DNA of 19,979 nt from a virus. This document shows, piece by piece, positions 2 through 18,398 of this stretch (within the stretch, counting starts at the first letter, position 1; the number at the start of each line of letters is the position of its first letter). The position numbers were made by a program, and so were the translations under genes. The notes under the pieces are model-generated. The model did not search any database. It was not told where the DNA came from and saw nothing but the letters and a program-made list of their open reading frames with translations. Where the stretch lies: the UHGV virus genome UHGV-0128318; one strand, given 5' to 3'.

Positions 2-1732
2 ACAGCCAACACATTCAATGCCTATATGAGCAGGGCCAGAAAACGGTTTGATGATAAACTTCATCATAGCTTTGAAAAAAATATACATCGCCTATCTGAA
101 AAGTATCCTTTATATAATGAGGAGCTATTGTCATGGCTTTCTCTACCTGCTGCCGATATTCGCCAGAGAATGTCAGCTTTACAGGCAAAATTAAAATTAA
201 TTCTCCCTCTATCAGAAGATTTATCTAATATCAGAATTGGCGATAACAAAAGTCATAACAAGTTATTGAAATTATCAAATAAATATAAAGAGTGGCAATT
301 CGCCATTTCTGATTTAACTAGCGATAACTGGAAAGATAAGCGCGATTATTTATATAAATTACTACAGCAAGGATCTGCCTTACTTGAGGAGTTGAATCAG
401 CTAAAAGTTAACCATGAGATTCTCTATCATCTTCAACTAAGCCCTGCCGAACGTGCATCTATCCAGCAACGATGGGCGGACGTTCTGCACAATAAAAAAC
501 GTAACGTGGTGGTCATTGATTACCCTAAATATATGCAAGCTATTTACGATATTATAAATAGCCCTGCTACATTAAATAATCTAAACACTCGTTCAGGTAT
601 GGCTCCTTTGGCATTTGCACTTGCTGCATTGTCAGGAAGACGAATGATTGAGATTATGTATCAAGGTACATTTACTGTTTCTGGTAAGTATACCGTTGAT
701 TTTTTAGGCCAAGCTAAAAAAAGAACTTCTGATGATATAACCAGAAAAATATATACATTATGCGAAGCAAAAACATTTGTTTATTTAATAAATGTACTTC
801 GCTCATGCCCAGCAGCATCTGATTTTGATGATGTCGTTAAAGGTTATGGAGATAACGACACACGCTCTGAAAACGGACGTATTAATGCCATATTAGCAAA
901 GGCTTTTAACCCGTGGGTTAAATCATTTTTCAAAGATGACCGCCGTGTTTATAAAGATAGTCGTGCTATTTATGCCCGTATTGCGTATGAAATGTTTTTC
1001 CGCGTAGATCCTCGTTGGAAAAACGTAGATGAAGATGTTTTCTTTATGGAAATTTTAGGCCATGACGATGAAAACACTCAATTACACTATAAGCAATTCA
1101 AGCTGGCCAACTTCTCAAAGACATGGAGGCCAAATACTGGAAACGAAAATACCAGGCTGGAAGCATTGCAGCAGCTTGATGACGAAATGCCTGGATTCGC
1201 CAGAGGAGATGCCGGGATTCGTCTGCATAACACAGTTAAGCAGCTGGTAGAGCAGGACCCCTCTATAAAAATCACGAACAGCACTCTAAGAGCGTTCAAA
1301 TTTAGCCCAACAATGATTAGTCGATACCTGGAATTTGCTGCTGATGCTCTGGGGCAATTTGTTGGCGAAAACGGACAATGGCAACTGAAAATAGATACTC
1401 CAGAAATCGTTATGCCTGACGAAGAAGAACTGGAAGCAATACCTGAACTGGCGGATGAATTATCAGAGGATGACGATCTGGATGACGACGAAATTGAGAT
1501 AGAGGAAGAGGAGGAGGAAGAGGAAGAGGAAGAGGAAGAGAGCGTAGAAGAACAGCAACCGCCTGCACCTTCTTCGCCTGTATCTAAGCCGGTATTTAAG
1601 CCGGTGAGAAATATTGGTGATGGCTCATACGTTGTTGAGTTTCATTATAATGGCCAGAATTATGCGTGGTCCGGCAGTGCAAACAGCCCCATGTCAGCAA
1701 TGCAGTTAGCATGGCTGACATATTTCGGTTAA
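2..1732 (+). CDS. telN: Protelomerase (telomere resolvase) TelN-like, 5'-truncated by the window edge. The frame is open from position 2 (TANTFNAYMSRARKRFDDKL...) and carries the tyrosine-recombinase-like catalytic region (...DSRAIYARIAYEMFF...) plus an acidic poly-Glu C-terminal tract.
   Basis: Translation matches my recollection of N15 TelN / phiKO2 TelK over most of its length. The ORF-track start at 26 is an internal Met; there is no stop upstream in frame. Position matches N15 synteny (telN ... repA-cB-cro). Confidence 0.9.
   Translation, partial: TANTFNAYMSRARKRFDDKLHHSFEKNIHRLSEKYPLYNEELLSWLSLPAADIRQRMSALQAKLKLILPLSEDLSNIRIGDNKSHNKLLKLSNKYKEWQFAISDLTSDNWKDKRDYLYKLLQQGSALLEELNQLKVNHEILYHLQLSPAERASIQQRWADVLHNKKRNVVVIDYPKYMQAIYDIINSPATLNNLNTRSGMAPLAFALAALSGRRMIEIMYQGTFTVSGKYTVDFLGQAKKRTSDDITRKIYTLCEAKTFVYLINVLRSCPAASDFDDVVKGYGDNDTRSENGRINAILAKAFNPWVKSFFKDDRRVYKDSRAIYARIAYEMFFRVDPRWKNVDEDVFFMEILGHDDENTQLHYKQFKLANFSKTWRPNTGNENTRLEALQQLDDEMPGFARGDAGIRLHNTVKQLVEQDPSIKITNSTLRAFKFSPTMISRYLEFAADALGQFVGENGQWQLKIDTPEIVMPDEEELEAIPELADELSEDDDLDDDEIEIEEEEEEEEEEEEESVEEQQPPAPSSPVSKPVFKPVRNIGDGSYVVEFHYNGQNYAWSGSANSPMSAMQLAWLTYFG
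1502..1550 (+). repeat. Uninterrupted GAG/GAA codon run encoding about 13 consecutive Glu inside telN
   Basis: Direct reading: gaggaagaggaggaggaagaggaagaggaagaggaagag. Confidence 0.9.
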
Positions 1733-1903: not shown

Positions 1904-2677
1904 CTATTTATTGGTGATTTCTGCTGGCTTTAGCTGCGCGGATAACTGCTCAAGTTTTTGAACTGCCAGTTCAAAATGCGCGGGTAACGCCTTTTCCAGA
2001 TCAGAGTTAATATCGGTGATGGGTAAATCACCACACGACATACTCCGCCTACCCCCACGAACAACATCACGCAACAACTCTCGTTCATACGTGCGCATGT
2101 TCCCCAATGCCGACTCAGCAGCCGTCAAAATCCGGCGCAGTTCTGCCGTAATTGCTGGCAAATCATCAACCGTTATGGGGTTCGGGGATGGATTACGACA
2201 CGCCCGACGCAAAGCTAACCATACACCGCTAATCCAGGCATTTCGGTACTGAAAACTTTGTGCTATATCGTTAATCAGCCCTCGCAGATACTCTTTCTGC
2301 CTCCAGTTCAACGGCTCCGCTGCTCGCATTGGCTCAGGCTCGATGTAAACGTACTCTCCATTTTTACGAATAGAGGGCAAGACTTCGTTCGTTACCCATT
2401 TGCGAAACCGCCAAGCTGTTGTGCCTTGCTTCACCGCGTCACGGCAGCGGAGAATGAGCGTGTAAAGACCTGATTCACTGATGATATTGGCTTGACCTTG
2501 ACGGCCTATGTTAAACATAGATCGCTCATCTTCATCTAATCGAGCGATAGCTTGTGTGACATTCTGGATGCTTAAAGCATTGCAAATATCATTCGCCACA
2601 AACCACGGATCGCCGTTAATCATCACTACACGTACCTGATGCTCTTCCTGAAAGGAAAAGACTGCTAACGCGCTCAT
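1904..2677 (-). CDS. Bro-N domain antirepressor (AntB-like), 257 aa
   Basis: N-terminus FSFQEEHQVRVVMINGDPWFVANDICNALSIQN...ISESGLYTLILRCRD...WVTNEVLPSIRKNGEYV is a typical Bro-N signature. Its ATG overlaps the stop of the upstream ORF (ATGA coupling). Confidence 0.75.
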   Translation of the reverse strand: MSALAVFSFQEEHQVRVVMINGDPWFVANDICNALSIQNVTQAIARLDEDERSMFNIGRQGQANIISESGLYTLILRCRDAVKQGTTAWRFRKWVTNEVLPSIRKNGEYVYIEPEPMRAAEPLNWRQKEYLRGLINDIAQSFQYRNAWISGVWLALRRACRNPSPNPITVDDLPAITAELRRILTAAESALGNMRTYERELLRDVVRGGRRSMSCGDLPITDINSDLEKALPAHFELAVQKLEQLSAQLKPAEITNK

Positions 2678-2907
2678 TCAGCCTCCTTACCGTGCAGCAA
2701 TTGCGACGAGAGCGATGCTGAATATCCCTGTGCTTCGTGTGTTAACTCACACGCAATTTGAAGGAGTTTCCCTGCTTCTGAGAGATAAATCGACGCCTCA
2801 CAGCTGGAGACTGTCCGATGGGCTGATGATACGAGCGCATAGACCTGAGCCAGACGTTCATCCAACGATTCCAGCAGGCCAACAGTGTTCATTTTTACCT
2901 GATTCAT
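2674..2907 (-). CDS. Small protein (77 aa) in the antA position of a P1/N15-type icd-ant operon
   Basis: ORF translationally coupled on both sides (ATGA overlaps with icd-like stop and with the Bro-N gene start); no recognisable domain. Confidence 0.45.
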   Translation of the reverse strand: MNQVKMNTVGLLESLDERLAQVYALVSSAHRTVSSCEASIYLSEAGKLLQIACELTHEAQGYSASLSSQLLHGKEAE

Positions 2908-3068
2908 GCAGCCACCTCGCGCACCGGAATACGGGCAGACAATACCAGGACAAACCGGCTGGCGAACTGGCGACGAGCTTCCCGTTCAGATGACGCGATG
3001 GTGGAAAGATGATGGATGTGTGACTTTTTGTCTGTGCGAACGACTGCCGCAAATTTGAATTTGAACAT
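2904..3068 (-). CDS. icd: Icd/Ash-like small protein (54 aa: MFKFKFAAVVRTDKKSHIHHLSTIASSEREARRQFASRFVLVLSARIPVREVAA). It is absent from the ORF track (shorter than the track's apparent cutoff) and conflicts with the spurious track ORF 2858..3052.
   Basis: ATG at 3068-3066 preceded by GGAG at about 8 nt; stop overlaps the next gene's ATG. The FKFAA...RRTD...EARRQ...ARIPV pattern resembles Icd/Ash-family proteins of P1/P4-type immunity operons (from memory, unverified). Confidence 0.5.
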   Translation of the reverse strand: MFKFKFAAVVRTDKKSHIHHLSTIASSEREARRQFASRFVLVLSARIPVREVAA

Positions 3069-3106
3069 GGTATGCACTCCGTTTAATTGGTCGTGCTACC
3101 ACCAGA

Positions 3107-3151
3107 GTTCTCACGCTCTTGAATGGTGGTAGCCCAAGCGGGGGTGAGAAT
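3107..3151 (-). promoter_or_regulatory. Leader target elements upstream of the icd-like RBS: a second copy of the 10-mer gttctcacgc (3107-3116, identical to the RNA loop at 3277-3286) and its partial complement gtgagaa (3144-3150)
   Basis: Exact 10-nt direct repeat 170 bp apart plus a 7-nt inverted copy. This allows either an intramolecular hairpin in the mRNA leader or pairing of the upstream small-RNA loop with the leader. Confidence 0.45.
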
Positions 3152-3234
3152 ACCGGCAAACGAAGAAACCGGCCTGACCGAAGTCAGCCCCGCCTGAGCC
3201 ACCATAAATCGGATATGCGCAGGTATATACACAC

Positions 3235-3256
3235 AAAAAAACACGCTGGCGCGTGT
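3235..3256 (-). terminator. Intrinsic terminator on the minus strand (acacgc-gcca-gcgtgt followed by T7), inside the leader of the antirepressor operon
   Basis: 6-bp GC-rich stem, 4-nt loop, immediate run of 7 T on the minus strand. Confidence 0.6.
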
Positions 3257-3309
3257 TGTGCGCTTCGTTTATCCGGGTTCTCACGCCCGGCTGCGGAATT
3301 TGCCGCAGC
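3235..3309 (-). ncRNA. Candidate c4/CA-type small regulatory RNA of about 75 nt: two stem-loops (3291-3308 ctgcgg/ccgcag; 3273-3290 ccggg/cccgg with loop cgugagaa) followed by the terminator
   Basis: Promoter-like TTGACG-18-TAAAGT on the minus strand (3345-3316) placed about 7 nt before the first stem-loop; loop sequence repeated and complemented in the downstream leader. Matches the known architecture of P1 c4 / P4 CI / N15 CA immunity RNAs. Confidence 0.45.
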
Positions 3310-3315
3310 GGAGTA

Positions 3316-3345
3316 ACTTTACCGTTAAAACGACGCACACGTCAA
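3316..3345 (-). promoter_or_regulatory. Putative sigma70 promoter of the anti-immunity operon (TTGACG-18-TAAAGT)
   Basis: Hexamer match and spacing read from the sequence; no other support. Confidence 0.3.
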
Positions 3346-3365
3346 TAATTTGCAAAGACATTTTA

Positions 3366-3385
3366 CCCCGTGACCAGTCACGGGG
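3366..3385. repeat. 20-bp palindrome ccccgtgaccagtcacgggg (family 2: CGTGAC-YR-GTCACG), about 20 bp upstream of the putative operon promoter
   Basis: Inverted repeat with 9-bp arms; near-identical core at 8049-8062 and 14369-14382. Confidence 0.6.
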
Positions 3386-3446: not shown

Positions 3447-3734
3447 TTACGGATTAAGAGAGTGGAAATACCTAACTAACTTACCGGCATCATCACATTT
3501 TTCTTTATCTTCTTCCTTAACATAGCCGCGACAGAAGGCTGAATAAAATTTCGCATTTTCAGAAGCAAAAGCAGCCGTCGAAAGGAGCAGTTCTTTGCAT
3601 GATTCTTTTGATGCAGCATCGGGATTATTTTTACATGCAAGCTCCGCTGATGAGTTAATAACAGAAATGCTATCTTCCTGGGCATAAACCGCAGCAGAAA
3701 AGGCAAAACATAAAACCAAAATAAAACTCTTCAC
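3447..3734 (-). CDS. Small secreted protein, about 95 aa, with a signal peptide (KSFILVLCFAFSAAVYA|QE) and four Cys in the mature part; function unknown
   Basis: GTG start at 3734-3732 with AGGAG at 5-nt spacing (the track's longer start at 3758 lacks an RBS); classic n-h-c signal peptide with AxA site; locally AT-rich. Confidence 0.5.
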   Translation of the reverse strand: MKSFILVLCFAFSAAVYAQEDSISVINSSAELACKNNPDAASKESCKELLLSTAAFASENAKFYSAFCRGYVKEEDKEKCDDAGKLVRYFHSLNP

Positions 3735-3761
3735 TTTATCTCCTGTAACAGTTATCACAAC

Positions 3762-16193: not shown

Positions 16194-16213
16194 TGTGCGA
16201 CCACGGTCGCACA
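16194..16213. repeat. SopB-type centromere-like palindrome tgtgcgacc-ac-ggtcgcaca (family 1), intergenic
   Basis: 9-bp perfect arms, 5 nt after the stop of the preceding gene. Confidence 0.5.
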
Positions 16214-16298
16214 GCACAAAAACGAAAAAGCTTGGCAAAATGACGGTTTTTAGTTATTGTTTTGTTAAGTTGGGTTTTTTGTACCCAACAGCCAACAA

Positions 16299-16321
16299 GC
16301 CGCCTTTATGGCGGTTTTTTT
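16299..16321 (+). terminator. Intrinsic terminator (gccgcc-tttat-ggcgg then T7)
   Basis: GC stem with a U-tract; preceded by a second hairpin gttgggt-ttttttgt-acccaac. Confidence 0.7.
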
Positions 16322-16338
16322 GTGCCTGAAAAGTGGGC

Positions 16339-16364
16339 GCAGGACAAGTTGCAGCTTGTCCTGC
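16339..16364. promoter_or_regulatory. Perfect 10-bp inverted repeat gcaggacaag-ttgcag-cttgtcctgc upstream of the methyltransferase gene
   Basis: Seen directly; no U-tract follows, so more likely an operator or RNA structure than a terminator. Confidence 0.4.
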
Positions 16365-16408
16365 GGTCAACCCATGCCAGAGCTATAGGCTGAACCTAAA
16401 GCCCACCC

Positions 16409-16422
16409 GCGATGCGCATCGC
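16409..16422. promoter_or_regulatory. Perfect 14-bp palindrome gcgatgcgcatcgc overlapping the first in-frame ATG of the methyltransferase ORF
   Basis: Seen directly. Confidence 0.4.
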
Positions 16423-17533
16423 CGGGTTAGCTTACCCAGGCAAAAAAATAATAGCTATGTTCAAAACCACTAATATTCATGGCGCACAACTCGTTTGCGC
16501 AGATTCTCTGCAATTTATCAAAACCATCCCTGATAACTCGGTCAATTTGATTGCAACAGACCCACCATACTTCGGCGTAAAGGCTAACGCATGGGATAAC
16601 CAGTGGGATAGCGATGCTGACTTTTTGGGGTGGATTGACGAATTTTTGGCAGAATTTTGGCGGATATTGGCCCCTAATGGCAGCCTGTATATGTTTACCG
16701 GCTCTCGCCTTGCGTCAAAAATTGAATTATTAACTCGCGACCGTTTCAATGTTCTGAACCATATCATTTGGGCTAAACCCAGTGGTATGTGGCGCGGTTG
16801 TCATAAAGAAAGTTTAAGGGCTTATTTTCCTGCTACTGAAAGAATATTATTTGCAGAGCATTACGGCGCGTCAGGTTATGCTAAAGGTCAGTCAGGTTAT
16901 GCTTCAAAATGTGCAGATTTAAGAAAAAATATTTTTTCTCCACTAATTGATGCTTTTTCGCTGGCTCGCCGTCAGTTAGATATATCAGCCGCAGACATTA
17001 ATTCAGCGACAGGAAAGCAGATGTGTTCACACTGGTTTTCTTATTCGCAGTGGCGGCTTCCATCATTAATTGATTTTAATAAACTATGCGAATTATTTCG
17101 CAGGAAGGCAGATTCACTCGGTGTCCCGTGTCCATATCCTTTTAATGTTGATTATTCAGAACATGAAAAGCGTTATAGCGATCTGAAATTGCATTATGAG
17201 GAAGTAAAGAAGCAGTATGATGATTTGAAGGCTCAGTATGAAAATTTACGCCGTCCATTTCATGTTACTGCTGATGTACCTTATACCGATGTATGGGAGT
17301 TTCCTCCTGTGCAATATTATCCTGGCAAGCACCCATGTGAAAAACCTGCAGCGATGATGGAACATATTATAAAGAGTAGTTCACGCCCCGGAGATATCGT
17401 TGCCGATTTCTTTATGGGATCAGGCTCAACTATTAAAGCTGCGCTGAAGTTAGGACGTCAGGCAATAGGTATTGAGATTGAGGGCGAACGTTATCTTCAG
17501 ACAGTTGATGAAGTGAAAAAGTTATTTGAGTAA
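16412..17533 (+). CDS. Orphan DNA methyltransferase of the N6-adenine/N4-cytosine amino-MTase family (beta-class: DPPY motif N-terminal, FxGxG motif C-terminal)
   Basis: Motifs IATDPPYF and DFFMGSGST; no adjacent restriction endonuclease gene. The true start may be the ATG at 16457 (MFKTTNIHG...). Confidence 0.85.
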   Translation: MRIAGLAYPGKKIIAMFKTTNIHGAQLVCADSLQFIKTIPDNSVNLIATDPPYFGVKANAWDNQWDSDADFLGWIDEFLAEFWRILAPNGSLYMFTGSRLASKIELLTRDRFNVLNHIIWAKPSGMWRGCHKESLRAYFPATERILFAEHYGASGYAKGQSGYASKCADLRKNIFSPLIDAFSLARRQLDISAADINSATGKQMCSHWFSYSQWRLPSLIDFNKLCELFRRKADSLGVPCPYPFNVDYSEHEKRYSDLKLHYEEVKKQYDDLKAQYENLRRPFHVTADVPYTDVWEFPPVQYYPGKHPCEKPAAMMEHIIKSSSRPGDIVADFFMGSGSTIKAALKLGRQAIGIEIEGERYLQTVDEVKKLFE

Positions 17534-17628
17534 CTGGAGAATATATTCCCCTGCCGTTTTTGGTAGGGGTTATTTTCGCCATATAGTTTCCAAGCCGAAA
17601 CCTCAGCAACTATTGCGAGGTAAGAGAT

Positions 17629-17901
17629 ATGAAGATGGATGAACGATACAGCAGTGCATCTTATGGTAGCGCCGGTCTTGCTGCGTTCTTTGCCAGCCTG
17701 TCATTGCAGGATTGGGGCTTCATTATCGGTGTCGCGTTCAGCATTATCCTCGGTGTGCTTACATACCGGCTCAATAAACGCGAGCAGATGAAGCGCACGA
17801 AGATATTGCAGGAGATATTGGATAAAACTAATACCAATAATCTTTCTGCTACAGCGATGGTTATTGGAGAGCTGGGGAAGAGAGCACCGAAGGAAATATG
17901 A
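17629..17901 (+). CDS. Class II holin (pinholin-like, two TM segments), 90 aa
   Basis: Two hydrophobic helices followed by a charged C-terminus; immediately upstream of and overlapping the endolysin start. Confidence 0.7.
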
Positions 17902-18398
17902 TGCAGTCATCATTACGCAAAGCTGTTACAGCTGCTATTGGTGGCGGGGCTATTGCCATAGCGTCTATGCTCATCACTGGCCCAAGTGGTAACGATGGTC
18001 TGGAAGGTGTCAGTTACATACCATACAAAGATATTGTTGGCGTATGGACTGTATGTTACGGACACACTGGAAAAGACATCATGCTAGGTAAAACGTATAC
18101 CGAAGCAGAATGCAAAGCTCTCCTGAATAAAGACCTTGCCACTGTCGCCAGACAAATTAACCCGTACATCAAAGTCGATATACCGGAAACAACGCGCGGC
18201 GCTCTTTACTCGTTCGTTTACAACGTGGGCGCTGGTAATTTCAGAACATCGACGCTTCTTCGCAAAATAAACCAGGGCGATATCAAAGGCGCATGTGATC
18301 AGCTACGTCGCTGGATATCTGCTGGCGGTAAGCAATGGAAAGGCCTGATGACTCGTCGTGAGATTGAGCGTGAAGTCTGTTTGTGGGGTCAACAATGA
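17898..18398 (+). CDS. SAR endolysin (phage lysozyme, T4-lysozyme/GH24-like, with N-terminal signal-anchor-release domain)
   Basis: Gly/Ala-rich N-terminal TM ([20 protein letters not shown]) and catalytic region [14 protein letters not shown]; ATGA overlap with the holin. Confidence 0.85.

Follow-up and report, generated by a model that had tools for sequence, protein, structure and literature searches.

The immA locus of phage N15 reportedly has the layout given by Ravin, Svarchevsky & Deho in 1999, namely Pa, CA RNA, icd, antA and antB. In N15, CA RNA reportedly acts to some extent through termination rather than translation. Structurally similar systems, with an IsrK-like and a C4-like element, are found in P4, P1, P7 and N15 (PMC3632133). 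In P1 and P7, c4 RNA acts around the ribosome-binding site of the ant operon, where it blocks translation (PMC12197685), and C4 precursors are among the substrates of RNase P (PMC2190699). For Gifsy-1, compensatory mutations proved the pairing of the IsrK hairpin-2 region with the C4-like RNA (PMC4825925).

Identity and layout of the locus

The window, that is, the whole 19,979-nt stretch of viral genome UHGV-0128318 that was analysed, is part of an N15-like linear telomere phage-plasmid, and Escherichia coli plasmid record CP088379.1 is 100% identical to it. Orthologues of icd, antA and antB stand in the N15 order, with the repA-side genes on one side and telN on the other. The region corresponds by orthology to N15 immA (icd-antA-antB), an RNA-controlled anti-immunity operon, and represents an ordinary additional case of a well-known system, with no new principle. 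What looks like a 'second copy' in CP088379.1 and YDC107_1 is a mirror-image duplication of one arm rather than a paralogue of the locus. The main elements, from the promoter onwards, are as follows.

3316–3345, minus strand: promoter Pa, with −35 TTGACG (3340–3345), an 18-nt spacer and −10 TAAAGT (3316–3321), from a promoter scan
3236–3309, minus strand: IsrK/P4 seqA-type leader RNA, with hairpin 1 (3290–3309), hairpin 2 (3274–3289) and the terminator hairpin
3233–3257, minus strand: intrinsic terminator Ta, a 7-bp stem (3240–3257) and then U7 (3233–3239), from a terminator scan and fold
3122–3209, minus strand: C4/CI/CA-type antisense RNA, with a 17-bp closing stem, two hairpins and a 3' ...ACCACCA tail
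2904–3068, minus strand: icd, a 54-aa cell-division inhibitor homologue (NCBIfam phage_ICD_like, 1e-18)
2674–2907, minus strand: antA, a 77-aa antirepressor homologue whose start overlaps the icd stop (ATGA) (PHROG 10889 'anti-repressor', 2e-18)
1904–2677, minus strand: antB, a 257-aa Bro-N protein whose start overlaps the antA stop (ATGA)
1744–1767, no strand assigned: GC-rich 9-bp hairpin between the convergent antB and protelomerase genes

The icd product shares 94% identity with the last 54 aa of N15 gp32, the antA product is 62% identical to gp31, and the antB product, which also matches Pfam Bro-N (9e-21) and PHROG 130 'anti-repressor Ant' (4e-45), is 73% identical to gp30. By homology, AntA is a putative inactivator of the CB prophage repressor and Icd a putative blocker of cell division. 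The hairpin at 1744–1767 has a fold z of −4.7 on the plus strand and, as modelled, is a possible bidirectional terminator; it was not called by the terminator scan because it has no T-run.

Across an alignment of 43 related loci, the TTGAC of the −35 hexamer and the TA...T of the −10 hexamer show little or no variation, and the predicted transcription start from Pa is the first base of the Rfam isrK match. The leader matches two Rfam families on the minus strand: RF01394 (IsrK/seqA-type; 68.1 bits against a threshold of 50, 3236–3309) and RF03163 (c4-a1b1 targets; 48.8 bits against a threshold of 46.7, 3270–3322). Its minimum free energy (MFE) fold consists of the two hairpins and the terminator (−28.7 kcal/mol). 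Among the related loci, hairpin 1 is 99% paired, with six of its seven pairs covarying, and the Ta stem is 98% paired. Ta is homologous to the 'putative rho-indep. transcription terminator' annotated in N15, and is annotated in phiKO2 too. The order promoter, isrK-type leader, C4 RNA recurs as the same tandem in all 15 of the 15 leader-bearing phage and plasmid relatives examined. By analogy with IsrK, a minus-strand RNA of ~75 nt, putatively Hfq-binding, may well occur as the terminated leader, serving as a target carrier or decoy rather than as a c4 homologue.

Much of this layout had been recognized in a preliminary description made from the letters of the sequence. All the sequence features that it named are there, at the coordinates that it gave. 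The promoter-like TTGACG-18-TAAAGT was recovered at 3345–3316 on the minus strand by the promoter scan, the two stem-loops and intrinsic terminator were returned by the MFE fold of the leader and the terminator scan, and the three coupled genes, described as icd-like, antA-like and Bro-N, are confirmed, with ATGA stop/start overlaps at both junctions.

The C4-type RNA and its targets

Rfam RF01695 (C4 antisense RNA) matches 3122–3209 on the minus strand over its full length (1–87), with 82.2 bits against a threshold of 45 (E 4e-15). The MFE fold of this RNA is the consensus fold (−47.9 kcal/mol, z −6.6). Its closing stem is 100% paired in relatives, with nine covarying pairs, and four of the five pairs of hairpin 1 covary. 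Sequence signs related to RNase P, a tRNA-like stem and the 3' ACCACCA tail, are also present. Since the three Rfam matches all lie above the curated thresholds, the leader hairpins and terminator are not the c4/CA homologue; the C4-type regulator lies downstream of the terminator, and the leader carries one set of its targets. Regulator and targets comprise six short elements; the letters a and b follow position here and may be the reverse of those in the P1 papers.

3157–3165, minus strand: determinant a', CUUCGUUUG, located in the hairpin-2 loop of the C4 RNA and complementary to both a1 and a2
3144–3150, minus strand: determinant b', UUCUCAC, single-stranded stretch after C4 hairpin 2
3277–3286, minus strand: upstream target b1, the 10-mer GCGUGAGAAC, borne by the hairpin-2 loop of the leader, with pairing core GUGAGAA at 3278–3284
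3263–3271, minus strand: upstream target a1, UAAACGAAG, lying after hairpin 2 and before the terminator
3104–3119, minus strand: small hairpin presenting downstream target b2, with the 10-mer at 3107–3116 and its core at 3108–3114
3077–3085, minus strand: downstream target a2, UAAACGGAG, including the icd Shine–Dalgarno GGAG (3077–3080), 8 nt before the ATG (3066–3068)

Computed duplexes and three-way covariation show that the two exposed determinants are complementary to upstream and downstream sites on the same transcript. The C4 hairpin-2 loop forms 9-bp duplexes with a1 (−9.0 kcal/mol) and a2 (−8.6 kcal/mol), and the b1:b' duplex has an energy of −9.2 kcal/mol. In nearly all 43 loci the a2 duplex ends no more than about a dozen nucleotides from the start codon, and overlies or adjoins the Shine–Dalgarno sequence, usually covering it. 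The 43 loci contain eight sequence types of b and 18 of a, in 27 combinations, each a' type fits the targets of its own locus, and both determinants co-vary with both targets, a covariation that does not separate cis from trans pairing. For b, pairing with b1 is retained at 91.5% and pairing with b2 at 99.7%; five of the seven pairs are changed on both sides in each case, those with b2 in ~20 sequences each. The a pairs are 66–68% paired in column-wise counts, because indels misalign the loops, and support for a therefore rests on duplex energies. Cognate duplexes are better than non-cognate ones by 3.4–4.6 kcal/mol for all four interactions; for a1:a' the values over the 43 loci are −11.5 and −8.1 kcal/mol, respectively. 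A pattern scan of viral contigs yielded 37 loci. NAR688 has the a/b type of the window, and a natural phiKO2-type allele of b2 reads GUAGGAA in place of GUGAGAA, for which UUCCUAC is the matching b'.

The preliminary description had noted that the 10-mer at 3277–3286 recurs at 3107–3116 and that its complement core lies at 3144–3150. Both observations are correct: GCGTGAGAAC is found exactly twice in the 20-kb window, at these two places, and the complement core is determinant b', inside the real regulator. The duplicated 10-mer marks two copies of the target of the C4-type RNA. When the 291-nt region is shuffled with its dinucleotides kept, 3.3% of the shuffles contain an exact direct repeat of 10 nt or more, and 0.18% a repeat with its 7-nt complement between the copies. 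With one mismatch allowed, the 10-mer is found twice in the whole window against 1.04 expected, which is uninformative; the bipartite motif GTGAGAA-N5-35-AAACGRAG is found three times against 0.01 expected, exactly at the three predicted places. Conservation with covariation in the relatives takes the pattern far beyond chance.

The second determinant, a' (3157–3165), and its target at the icd ribosome-binding site (3077–3085) were absent from the preliminary account.

Two further pairings were considered and rejected. The GCGUG of the b1 loop could in principle act as an antiterminator against the right arm of the terminator; this pairing is not conserved, and was discarded because N15-type b1 (CCUCUCAAC) lacks GCGUG though the terminator is unchanged. 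The loop of leader hairpin 1 (GCAAA) is complementary to UUUGC in the C4-type RNA, yet covariation is absent: the hairpin-1 loop hardly changes, whereas the C4 loop is variable.

Proposed regulation and alternative readings

It is very probable that this immA operon is governed by partial termination of the Pa transcript, with read-through giving a C4-type RNA that blocks icd translation and leaves antA and antB silent. Family membership, the folds, complementarity, three-way covariation and protein orthology, on which this model is based, are directly shown. The constitutive-looking sigma-70 promoter at 3345–3316 would start a transcript whose first 74 nt form the two hairpins and the intrinsic terminator. 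Many transcripts would stop at Ta, generating a short IsrK/seqA-like RNA, while those that read through would carry the C4-type RNA, which is probably cut out by RNase P and other nucleases, as for P1 c4 and P4 CI. The C4-type RNA is predicted to expose a' in a hairpin loop and b' in a single strand. These would pair with the bipartite site of the leader, in which b1 occupies a hairpin loop and a1 directly precedes the terminator, and with a bipartite site just 3' of the RNA, in which b2 occupies a hairpin loop and a2 lies over the icd Shine–Dalgarno sequence. Binding at a2/b2 would block translation of icd, and antA and antB would be silenced with it because both start at ATGA overlaps. The predicted outcome is that antirepressor is produced neither in the lysogen nor from a superinfecting phage that shares its specificity, the a' and b' sequences setting that specificity and thus the immunity type. 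At a1/b1, binding probably either strengthens termination at Ta or allows the leader to sense or titrate the RNA; as the short leader RNA of Gifsy-1 is an activator and not a repressor (PMC4825925), it is uncertain which sign the a1/b1 effect has. Within this model, RNA processing, repression and the role of a1/b1 are the parts that we infer.

Control could instead be mainly transcriptional, as in P4 and the N15 model as generally understood, with the C4-type RNA binding nascent a1/b1 to enforce termination at Ta and a2/b2 being secondary. This has a real, though lesser, likelihood: a1 lies directly against the hairpin of the terminator, both upstream targets covary with the RNA, the conserved terminator is annotated in both N15 and phiKO2, and in P4 the pairing of CI RNA with seqA and seqC leads to premature termination (PMC4825925). 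However, the terminator is already present in the MFE fold of the free leader, leaving no antiterminator to remove, and the single antiterminator idea examined is not conserved. In addition, complementarity is stricter for b2 than for b1 (99.7% against 91.5%) and a2 lies on the Shine–Dalgarno sequence, which argues for translation as the primary target. The leader may also have a cis-acting function, which centres on one further segment.

3093–3103, minus strand: switch segment, GGUGGUAGCAC, partner of either the C4 3' arm (3125–3133) or the icd start region (3067–3077)

Pairing with both partners is conserved and covarying, and pairing with one excludes the other. The alternative helix, formed by 3095–3103 and the C4 3' arm (3125–3133), is 97.6% paired with four of nine pairs covarying, and the start-codon helix, formed by 3093–3102 and the icd start region (3067–3077), is 89% paired with seven of ten covarying. 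The two global folds are within ~1 kcal/mol of each other in the window and differ by −3.0 ± 4.5 kcal/mol over 42 loci, so that the alternative fold is competitive in these relatives. As modelled, the conserved alternative helix suggests a bistable leader. Under such a scheme the leader would be a cis-acting switch or decoy. In the 263-nt read-through RNA, a1/b1 would pair in cis with a'/b' and keep the C4 fold from forming, leaving the C4 3' arm to pair with GGUGGUAGC and the icd start accessible (ON); pre-existing C4 RNA would take a1/b1 first and so lead to the fold that buries the start codon (OFF). Gifsy-1 IsrK offers a parallel, as two conformers with the same leader:C4 pairing were seen on native gels, and these conformers and this pairing are thus already published for that system. 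The cis-paired conformer of Gifsy-1 is, however, the translationally inactive one, which is the opposite polarity; co-transcriptional folding should favour the C4 fold, and the switch is a thermodynamic prediction in which the energy differences are within model error. A switch or decoy of this kind is rather unlikely. The broader proposal, of a bistable read-through leader whose upstream target is a sensor of pre-existing C4 RNA, together with a and b determinants that reassort as independent modules, as their 27 combinations suggest, in a combinatorial immunity code among N15-like phage-plasmids, is offered tentatively and is similarly doubtful.

The remaining alternatives concern the identity of the RNA itself. 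The preliminary description assigned the locus to the P1 c4/P4 CI/N15 CA class and regarded its 10-mer as meaningful, which stands, but the roles were misassigned. It took the ~75-nt leader (3235–3309 as first delimited, 3236–3309 here) to be a c4/CA-like repressor that pairs with the downstream 10-mer and with the core at 3144–3150, thereby blocking read-through or translation. A stable short RNA is plausible, given that the leader folds well and has a terminator at its end; the leader is also complementary to 3144–3150, and its Gifsy-1 homologue IsrK is a real trans-acting small RNA (PMC4825925). Nevertheless, the leader 10-mer is identical, not complementary, to 3107–3116 next to the icd ribosome-binding site, so the two copies are unable to pair; the C4 covariance model matches 3122–3209 and not the leader, which matches IsrK/seqA and the target family c4-a1b1; and IsrK is an activator, not a repressor. 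A repressor role for the leader is thus very improbable. Still harder to credit is that 3083–3205 encodes an Ash-family protein rather than an RNA, as in the PGAP annotation of the public record. A 40-aa ORF there matches Pfam PF10554 Phage_ASH (3.6e-9), the PGAP call is 'ash family protein', and translation of the equivalent orf45 in Gifsy-1 affects downstream expression. Among the 43 loci, however, neither the length nor the frame expected of a conserved coding or coupling ORF is conserved: the ORF that opens at the conserved AUG closes after 8 to 40 codons or stays open, and relative to icd it is found in each of the three frames. Moreover, the substitutions are compensatory for RNA helices, and the Ash region matches the RNA covariance model with 82 bits. 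The 'ash family protein' gene call of the public record sits on an RNA gene.

Comparison with known systems

A clinical E. coli phage-plasmid carries the immA antisense-RNA switch of N15 in intact form. The main value of the comparison is in annotation, as it provides precise coordinates for the regulator and its four target elements. The comparative set also forms a series of natural compensatory variants, usable for the study of antisense specificity and superinfection immunity among telomere phages.

P1 and P7 immI resemble the locus in that the antisense RNA is co-transcribed with its target, has two exposed determinants and is directed at a target around the icd ribosome-binding site; ant is coupled to icd, differences in specificity lead to heteroimmunity, and processing is by RNase P (PMC12197685, PMC8201110, PMC2190699). 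The P1 antirepressor is unrelated in size, and P1 Icd was not detected by tblastn with the Icd of the window.

P4 shares the isrK-type leader and C4-type RNA, an identical b determinant and 10-mer targets (UAUUCUCACCCCC and GCGUGAGAAC), and an Icd-like ORF downstream (50% identity). It differs in its a' (CCUGUGAA) and in the gap between terminator and RNA, which is 107 nt in P4 and 26 in the window. Replication genes rather than antA and antB lie downstream in P4, and its control is described as premature termination.

In Salmonella Gifsy-1 (IsrK, orf45/STnc1160, anrP) and its homologues in Stx phages, the same two Rfam families occur in tandem upstream of an antirepressor, and pairing of leader hairpin 2 with the C4 RNA and two alternative conformers have been shown experimentally for Gifsy-1. 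However, Gifsy-1 has no icd, and its C4-like RNA is immediately followed by the antirepressor gene; the short leader RNA is a trans activator and the output is an antiterminator cascade.

N15 shares the genome type (protelomerase, RepA), the position next to telN and the gene order. Similarity extends to the proteins (Icd 94%, AntA 62% and AntB 73% identical), to the DNA from the leader through icd (~80% identical), and to the promoter, terminator, C4-type RNA and bipartite targets. In the N15 record the RNA region is given as the protein 'cA' (gp32), which shares the frame of icd and is fused to it, whereas the frames in the window differ. The determinants also differ, b' being UUGAGAA and a' CUUCUUGU in N15, compared with UUCUCAC and CUUCGUUU in the window. 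As these differences are accompanied by matching changes in all four targets, the two phage-plasmids are predicted to be hetero-immune at immA.

Identity and layout of the operon

The operon belongs to a telomere phage of the N15 kind and is its immA locus. The window genes include one for a RepA-like protein of 1329 aa and one for a protelomerase with TelK/ResT domains (Pfam), and the window is 100% identical to the E. coli plasmid record CP088379.1. In N15, a segment with genes 30–32 and an annotated rho-independent terminator is ~80% identical in DNA to the region, gene order and the neighbouring telN are the same, and Icd (the C-terminal part of gp32), gp31 (AntA) and gp30 (AntB) are 94, 62 and 73% identical to the window icd, antA and antB products, respectively. 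The three operon proteins match NCBIfam phage_ICD_like, PHROG anti-repressor families and Pfam Bro-N; in the literature, icd, antA and antB together make up the immA operon (PMC4488713).

Operon region and promoter
1904-3385, minus strand: RNA-controlled operon region
3345..3316, minus strand: promoter-like TTGACG-18-TAAAGT (Pa), from a promoter scan

Downstream of the promoter, terminator scanning and folding reveal a 74 nt leader: two hairpins, then a terminator hairpin with a 7-bp stem (Ta) and seven U's. Three closely packed ORFs follow, with an ATGA stop/start overlap at both junctions. Within the 20 kb of the window there are just two exact copies of the 10-mer GCGUGAGAAC (3277-3286 and 3107-3116), and UUCUCAC, the core of its complement, lies at 3144-3150 on the minus strand. 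All of these elements are at the positions assigned to them in a preliminary description. Chance is a weak explanation of the repeats. When the 291-nt region was dinucleotide-shuffled, 3.3% of the shuffles contained a direct repeat of 10 nt or longer, and 0.18% a repeat with its complement between both copies; the bipartite motif GTGAGAA-N5-35-AAACGRAG is present three times in the window vs 0.01 expected.

An 8-bp GC-rich hairpin without a T-run (CCCCGUGA-CUGG-UCACGGGG, 3366-3385, minus strand), 20 nt upstream of the Pa -35 box, could shield Pa from the repA-side operon upstream. Another hairpin, of 9 bp and also without a T-run, lies between the convergent antB and telN (1744-1767; z -4.7 on the plus strand). 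The 103-aa ORF directly upstream of Pa (3447-3758, minus strand) has an N-terminal hydrophobic, signal-like segment and no match in Pfam or NCBIfam; its PHROG match is family 26765, of unknown function, and in PhiR46_1 the homologue carries the annotation 'Spackle exclusion protein'. The protelomerase ORF (26-1732, plus strand), which is cut by the window start, contains a long acidic low-complexity run (DDDLDDDEIEIEEEEEEEEEEEEEESVEE) in its C-terminal part, at about 1400-1560.

CP088379.1 (L004) was deposited as a 36.6-kb 'circular' plasmid in which one arm is duplicated as a mirror image, with two telomere resolvase genes head-to-head (16200-18107 and 18490-20397); phage YDC107_1 (L003/L007, CP025712.1) shows the same pattern. 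The arrangement appears to have arisen by misassembly of a linear replicon with hairpin ends, and it accounts for the seeming 'second copy' of the locus. Amongst relatives antB is variable, icd and the RNA elements forming the conserved core: antB is shrunk to a 54-aa ORF in PhiR46_1 and pB16EC0268-3 (records L005, 2176-2340, and L015, 1872-2036), PY54 lacks it, and in pAR-0403 and phiARM81ld an IS605/TnpB element follows a small antA-like ORF (L017, 1802-2650, and L013, 1656-2576).

The regulatory RNA and its two determinants

In an Rfam scan, three families scored above their curated thresholds in the window.

Rfam matches in the window
3122-3209, minus strand: C4 antisense RNA, 82.2 bits (threshold 45)
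3236-3309, minus strand: IsrK, 68.1 bits (threshold 50)
3270-3322, minus strand: c4-a1b1, 'a1, b1 targets of C4 antisense RNA', 48.8 bits (threshold 46.7)

For the C4 segment, folding recovers the consensus structure, a 17-bp closing stem around two hairpins (-47.9 kcal/mol, z -6.6). The c4/CI/CA-type regulator therefore sits downstream of the terminator, and the hairpins-plus-terminator leader is an IsrK/P4-seqA-type element bearing the upstream target copy. The preliminary description had rightly recognized a c4/CA-type immunity system, and the c4 family model does match, but at 3122-3209 and not in the leader, which had been taken for the regulator. Pairing of a leader small RNA with the downstream 10-mer, also suggested there, has to be abandoned: the two 10-mers are identical and so cannot pair with each other, and both are complementary to UUCUCAC within the C4-type RNA.

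A second determinant, directed at the icd ribosome-binding site, had been missed. Here a' denotes the loop element, with a1 as its upstream and a2 as its downstream target, and b' the single-stranded element UUCUCAC, targeting b1 upstream and b2 downstream; the letters go by position and are possibly swapped with respect to the original P1 papers. In the loop of C4 hairpin 2, a' (CUUCGUUUG, 3157-3165) can form 9 bp with a1 (UAAACGAAG, 3263-3271), situated between leader hairpin 2 and the terminator, and, G.U pairs included, 9 bp with a2 (UAAACGGAG, 3077-3085). The latter includes the icd Shine–Dalgarno sequence GGAG, 8 nt before the ATG (3066-3068).

Pairing amongst relatives

Sixteen relatives (phage and plasmid records) and 37 stretches (viral contigs) yielded, after removal of duplicates, 43 distinct loci, which were aligned. 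An isrK-type leader precedes a C4-type RNA in all 15 relatives that have a leader, and a' and b' each vary jointly with both their own targets (eight b' types, 18 a' types, 27 combinations). In this alignment b':b2 is 99.7% paired, with five of seven pairs altered on both sides in ~20 sequences each, and b1:b' is 91.5% paired, again with 5/7 pairs altered on both sides; shuffling and sliding controls fall far below both. The a pairs, only 66-68% paired in alignment columns, are poorly aligned because loop lengths vary, and were resolved by cognate vs non-cognate duplex energies: -11.5 vs -8.1 kcal/mol upstream and -10.1 vs -6.7 kcal/mol downstream for a', with -9.4 vs -4.8 and -9.25 vs -5.4 kcal/mol, respectively, for b'. 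Across almost all 43 loci, no more than about a dozen nt separate the end of the a2 duplex from the start codon, and the duplex usually takes in the Shine–Dalgarno sequence.

The window specificity type is common to Klebsiella phage NAR688 and a few viral contigs. N15 differs in both a and b; in satellite phage P4, a differs, whereas the b determinant (UAUUCUCACCCCC) and the 10-mer targets are identical to those of the window (3144-3156; 3107-3116/3277-3286). Partial cross-talk between P4 CI RNA and the window phage-plasmid is conceivable. In one contig (L056, IMGVR_UViG_3300007747_000119, 2637-2949), promoter, leader and terminator are kept and the C4-type RNA is broken off after its first hairpin, unrelated sequence replacing the rest; in this natural variant, either the locus is defective or its anti-immunity is deregulated.

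The C4 part of the query has matches in about 1400 conjugative plasmids, including IncI-type ones. In p96 (L019, NZ_CP023370.1, IncI-gamma/K1), a C4-type RNA (77.5 bits, 1501-1588) lies directly upstream of traA (at 1641); a matching bipartite target covers the traA ribosome-binding site, and upstream there is a b1-like hairpin. In pECL189-3 (L018), such an RNA at 1280-1365 is followed by genes for a LuxR-type regulator and a NusG-family protein. These positions suggest that the same antisense module may control transfer-gene regulators.

Putative mechanism and related systems

Transcripts from Pa would partially terminate at Ta, and we infer that those reading through are processed to the C4-type RNA; RNase P substrates include C4 precursors (PMC2190699). 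This RNA would pair with b2, in a hairpin loop, and with a2, over the Shine–Dalgarno sequence, and so block translation of icd, and of antA and antB together with it through the ATGA overlaps. In P1 and P7, translation is blocked by c4 RNA, which binds around the ribosome-binding site in the leader of the ant operon (PMC12197685), and P1 ant expression requires icd expression (PMC8201110). Control may instead be purely transcriptional, by termination; P4 CI RNA pairs with seqA and seqC, giving premature termination (discussed in PMC4825925). Pairing with a1/b1 could either strengthen termination or make the leader a sensor or decoy.

That 3083-3205 codes for protein instead of RNA is unlikely. 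PGAP calls an 'ash family protein' here, with a Pfam PF10554 (Phage_ASH) match at 3.6e-9; however, amongst the 43 relatives the ORF from the conserved AUG ranges from 8 to >40 codons and occurs in all three frames relative to icd, and substitutions keep the RNA helices intact. The ORF overlies the C4-type RNA both in the window (minus strand) and in N15 (gene 32/'cA', L002, 2745-3035), and translated copies of an RNA gene seem to be the basis of at least part of the Phage_ASH family.

Returning to the RNA, GGUGGUAGCAC (3093-3103) is a perfect complement of the C4 3' arm (3125-3133), this helix being 97.6% paired in relatives, with 4/9 pairs covarying. The segment has an alternative partner in the icd start region (3067-3077; 89% paired, 7/10 pairs covarying). 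Thermodynamic prediction gives the 263-nt read-through RNA two global folds ~1 kcal/mol apart: one with the C4 RNA formed and the icd AUG buried, the other with a1/b1 paired in cis with a'/b', the alternative helix formed and the icd start open. Predicted energies make the second fold a competitive one across 42 relatives as well (mean difference -3.0 ± 4.5 kcal/mol). The two predicted folds resemble the two demonstrated conformers of Gifsy-1 IsrK, so such a switch would at best vary a theme that is already in print. Compensatory mutations proved for Gifsy-1 that IsrK hairpin 2 pairs with a C4-like RNA (PMC4825925), and N15, P1, P4 and P7 have structurally similar systems (PMC3632133). The locus is a further member, of different specificity, of this well-characterised kind of system.
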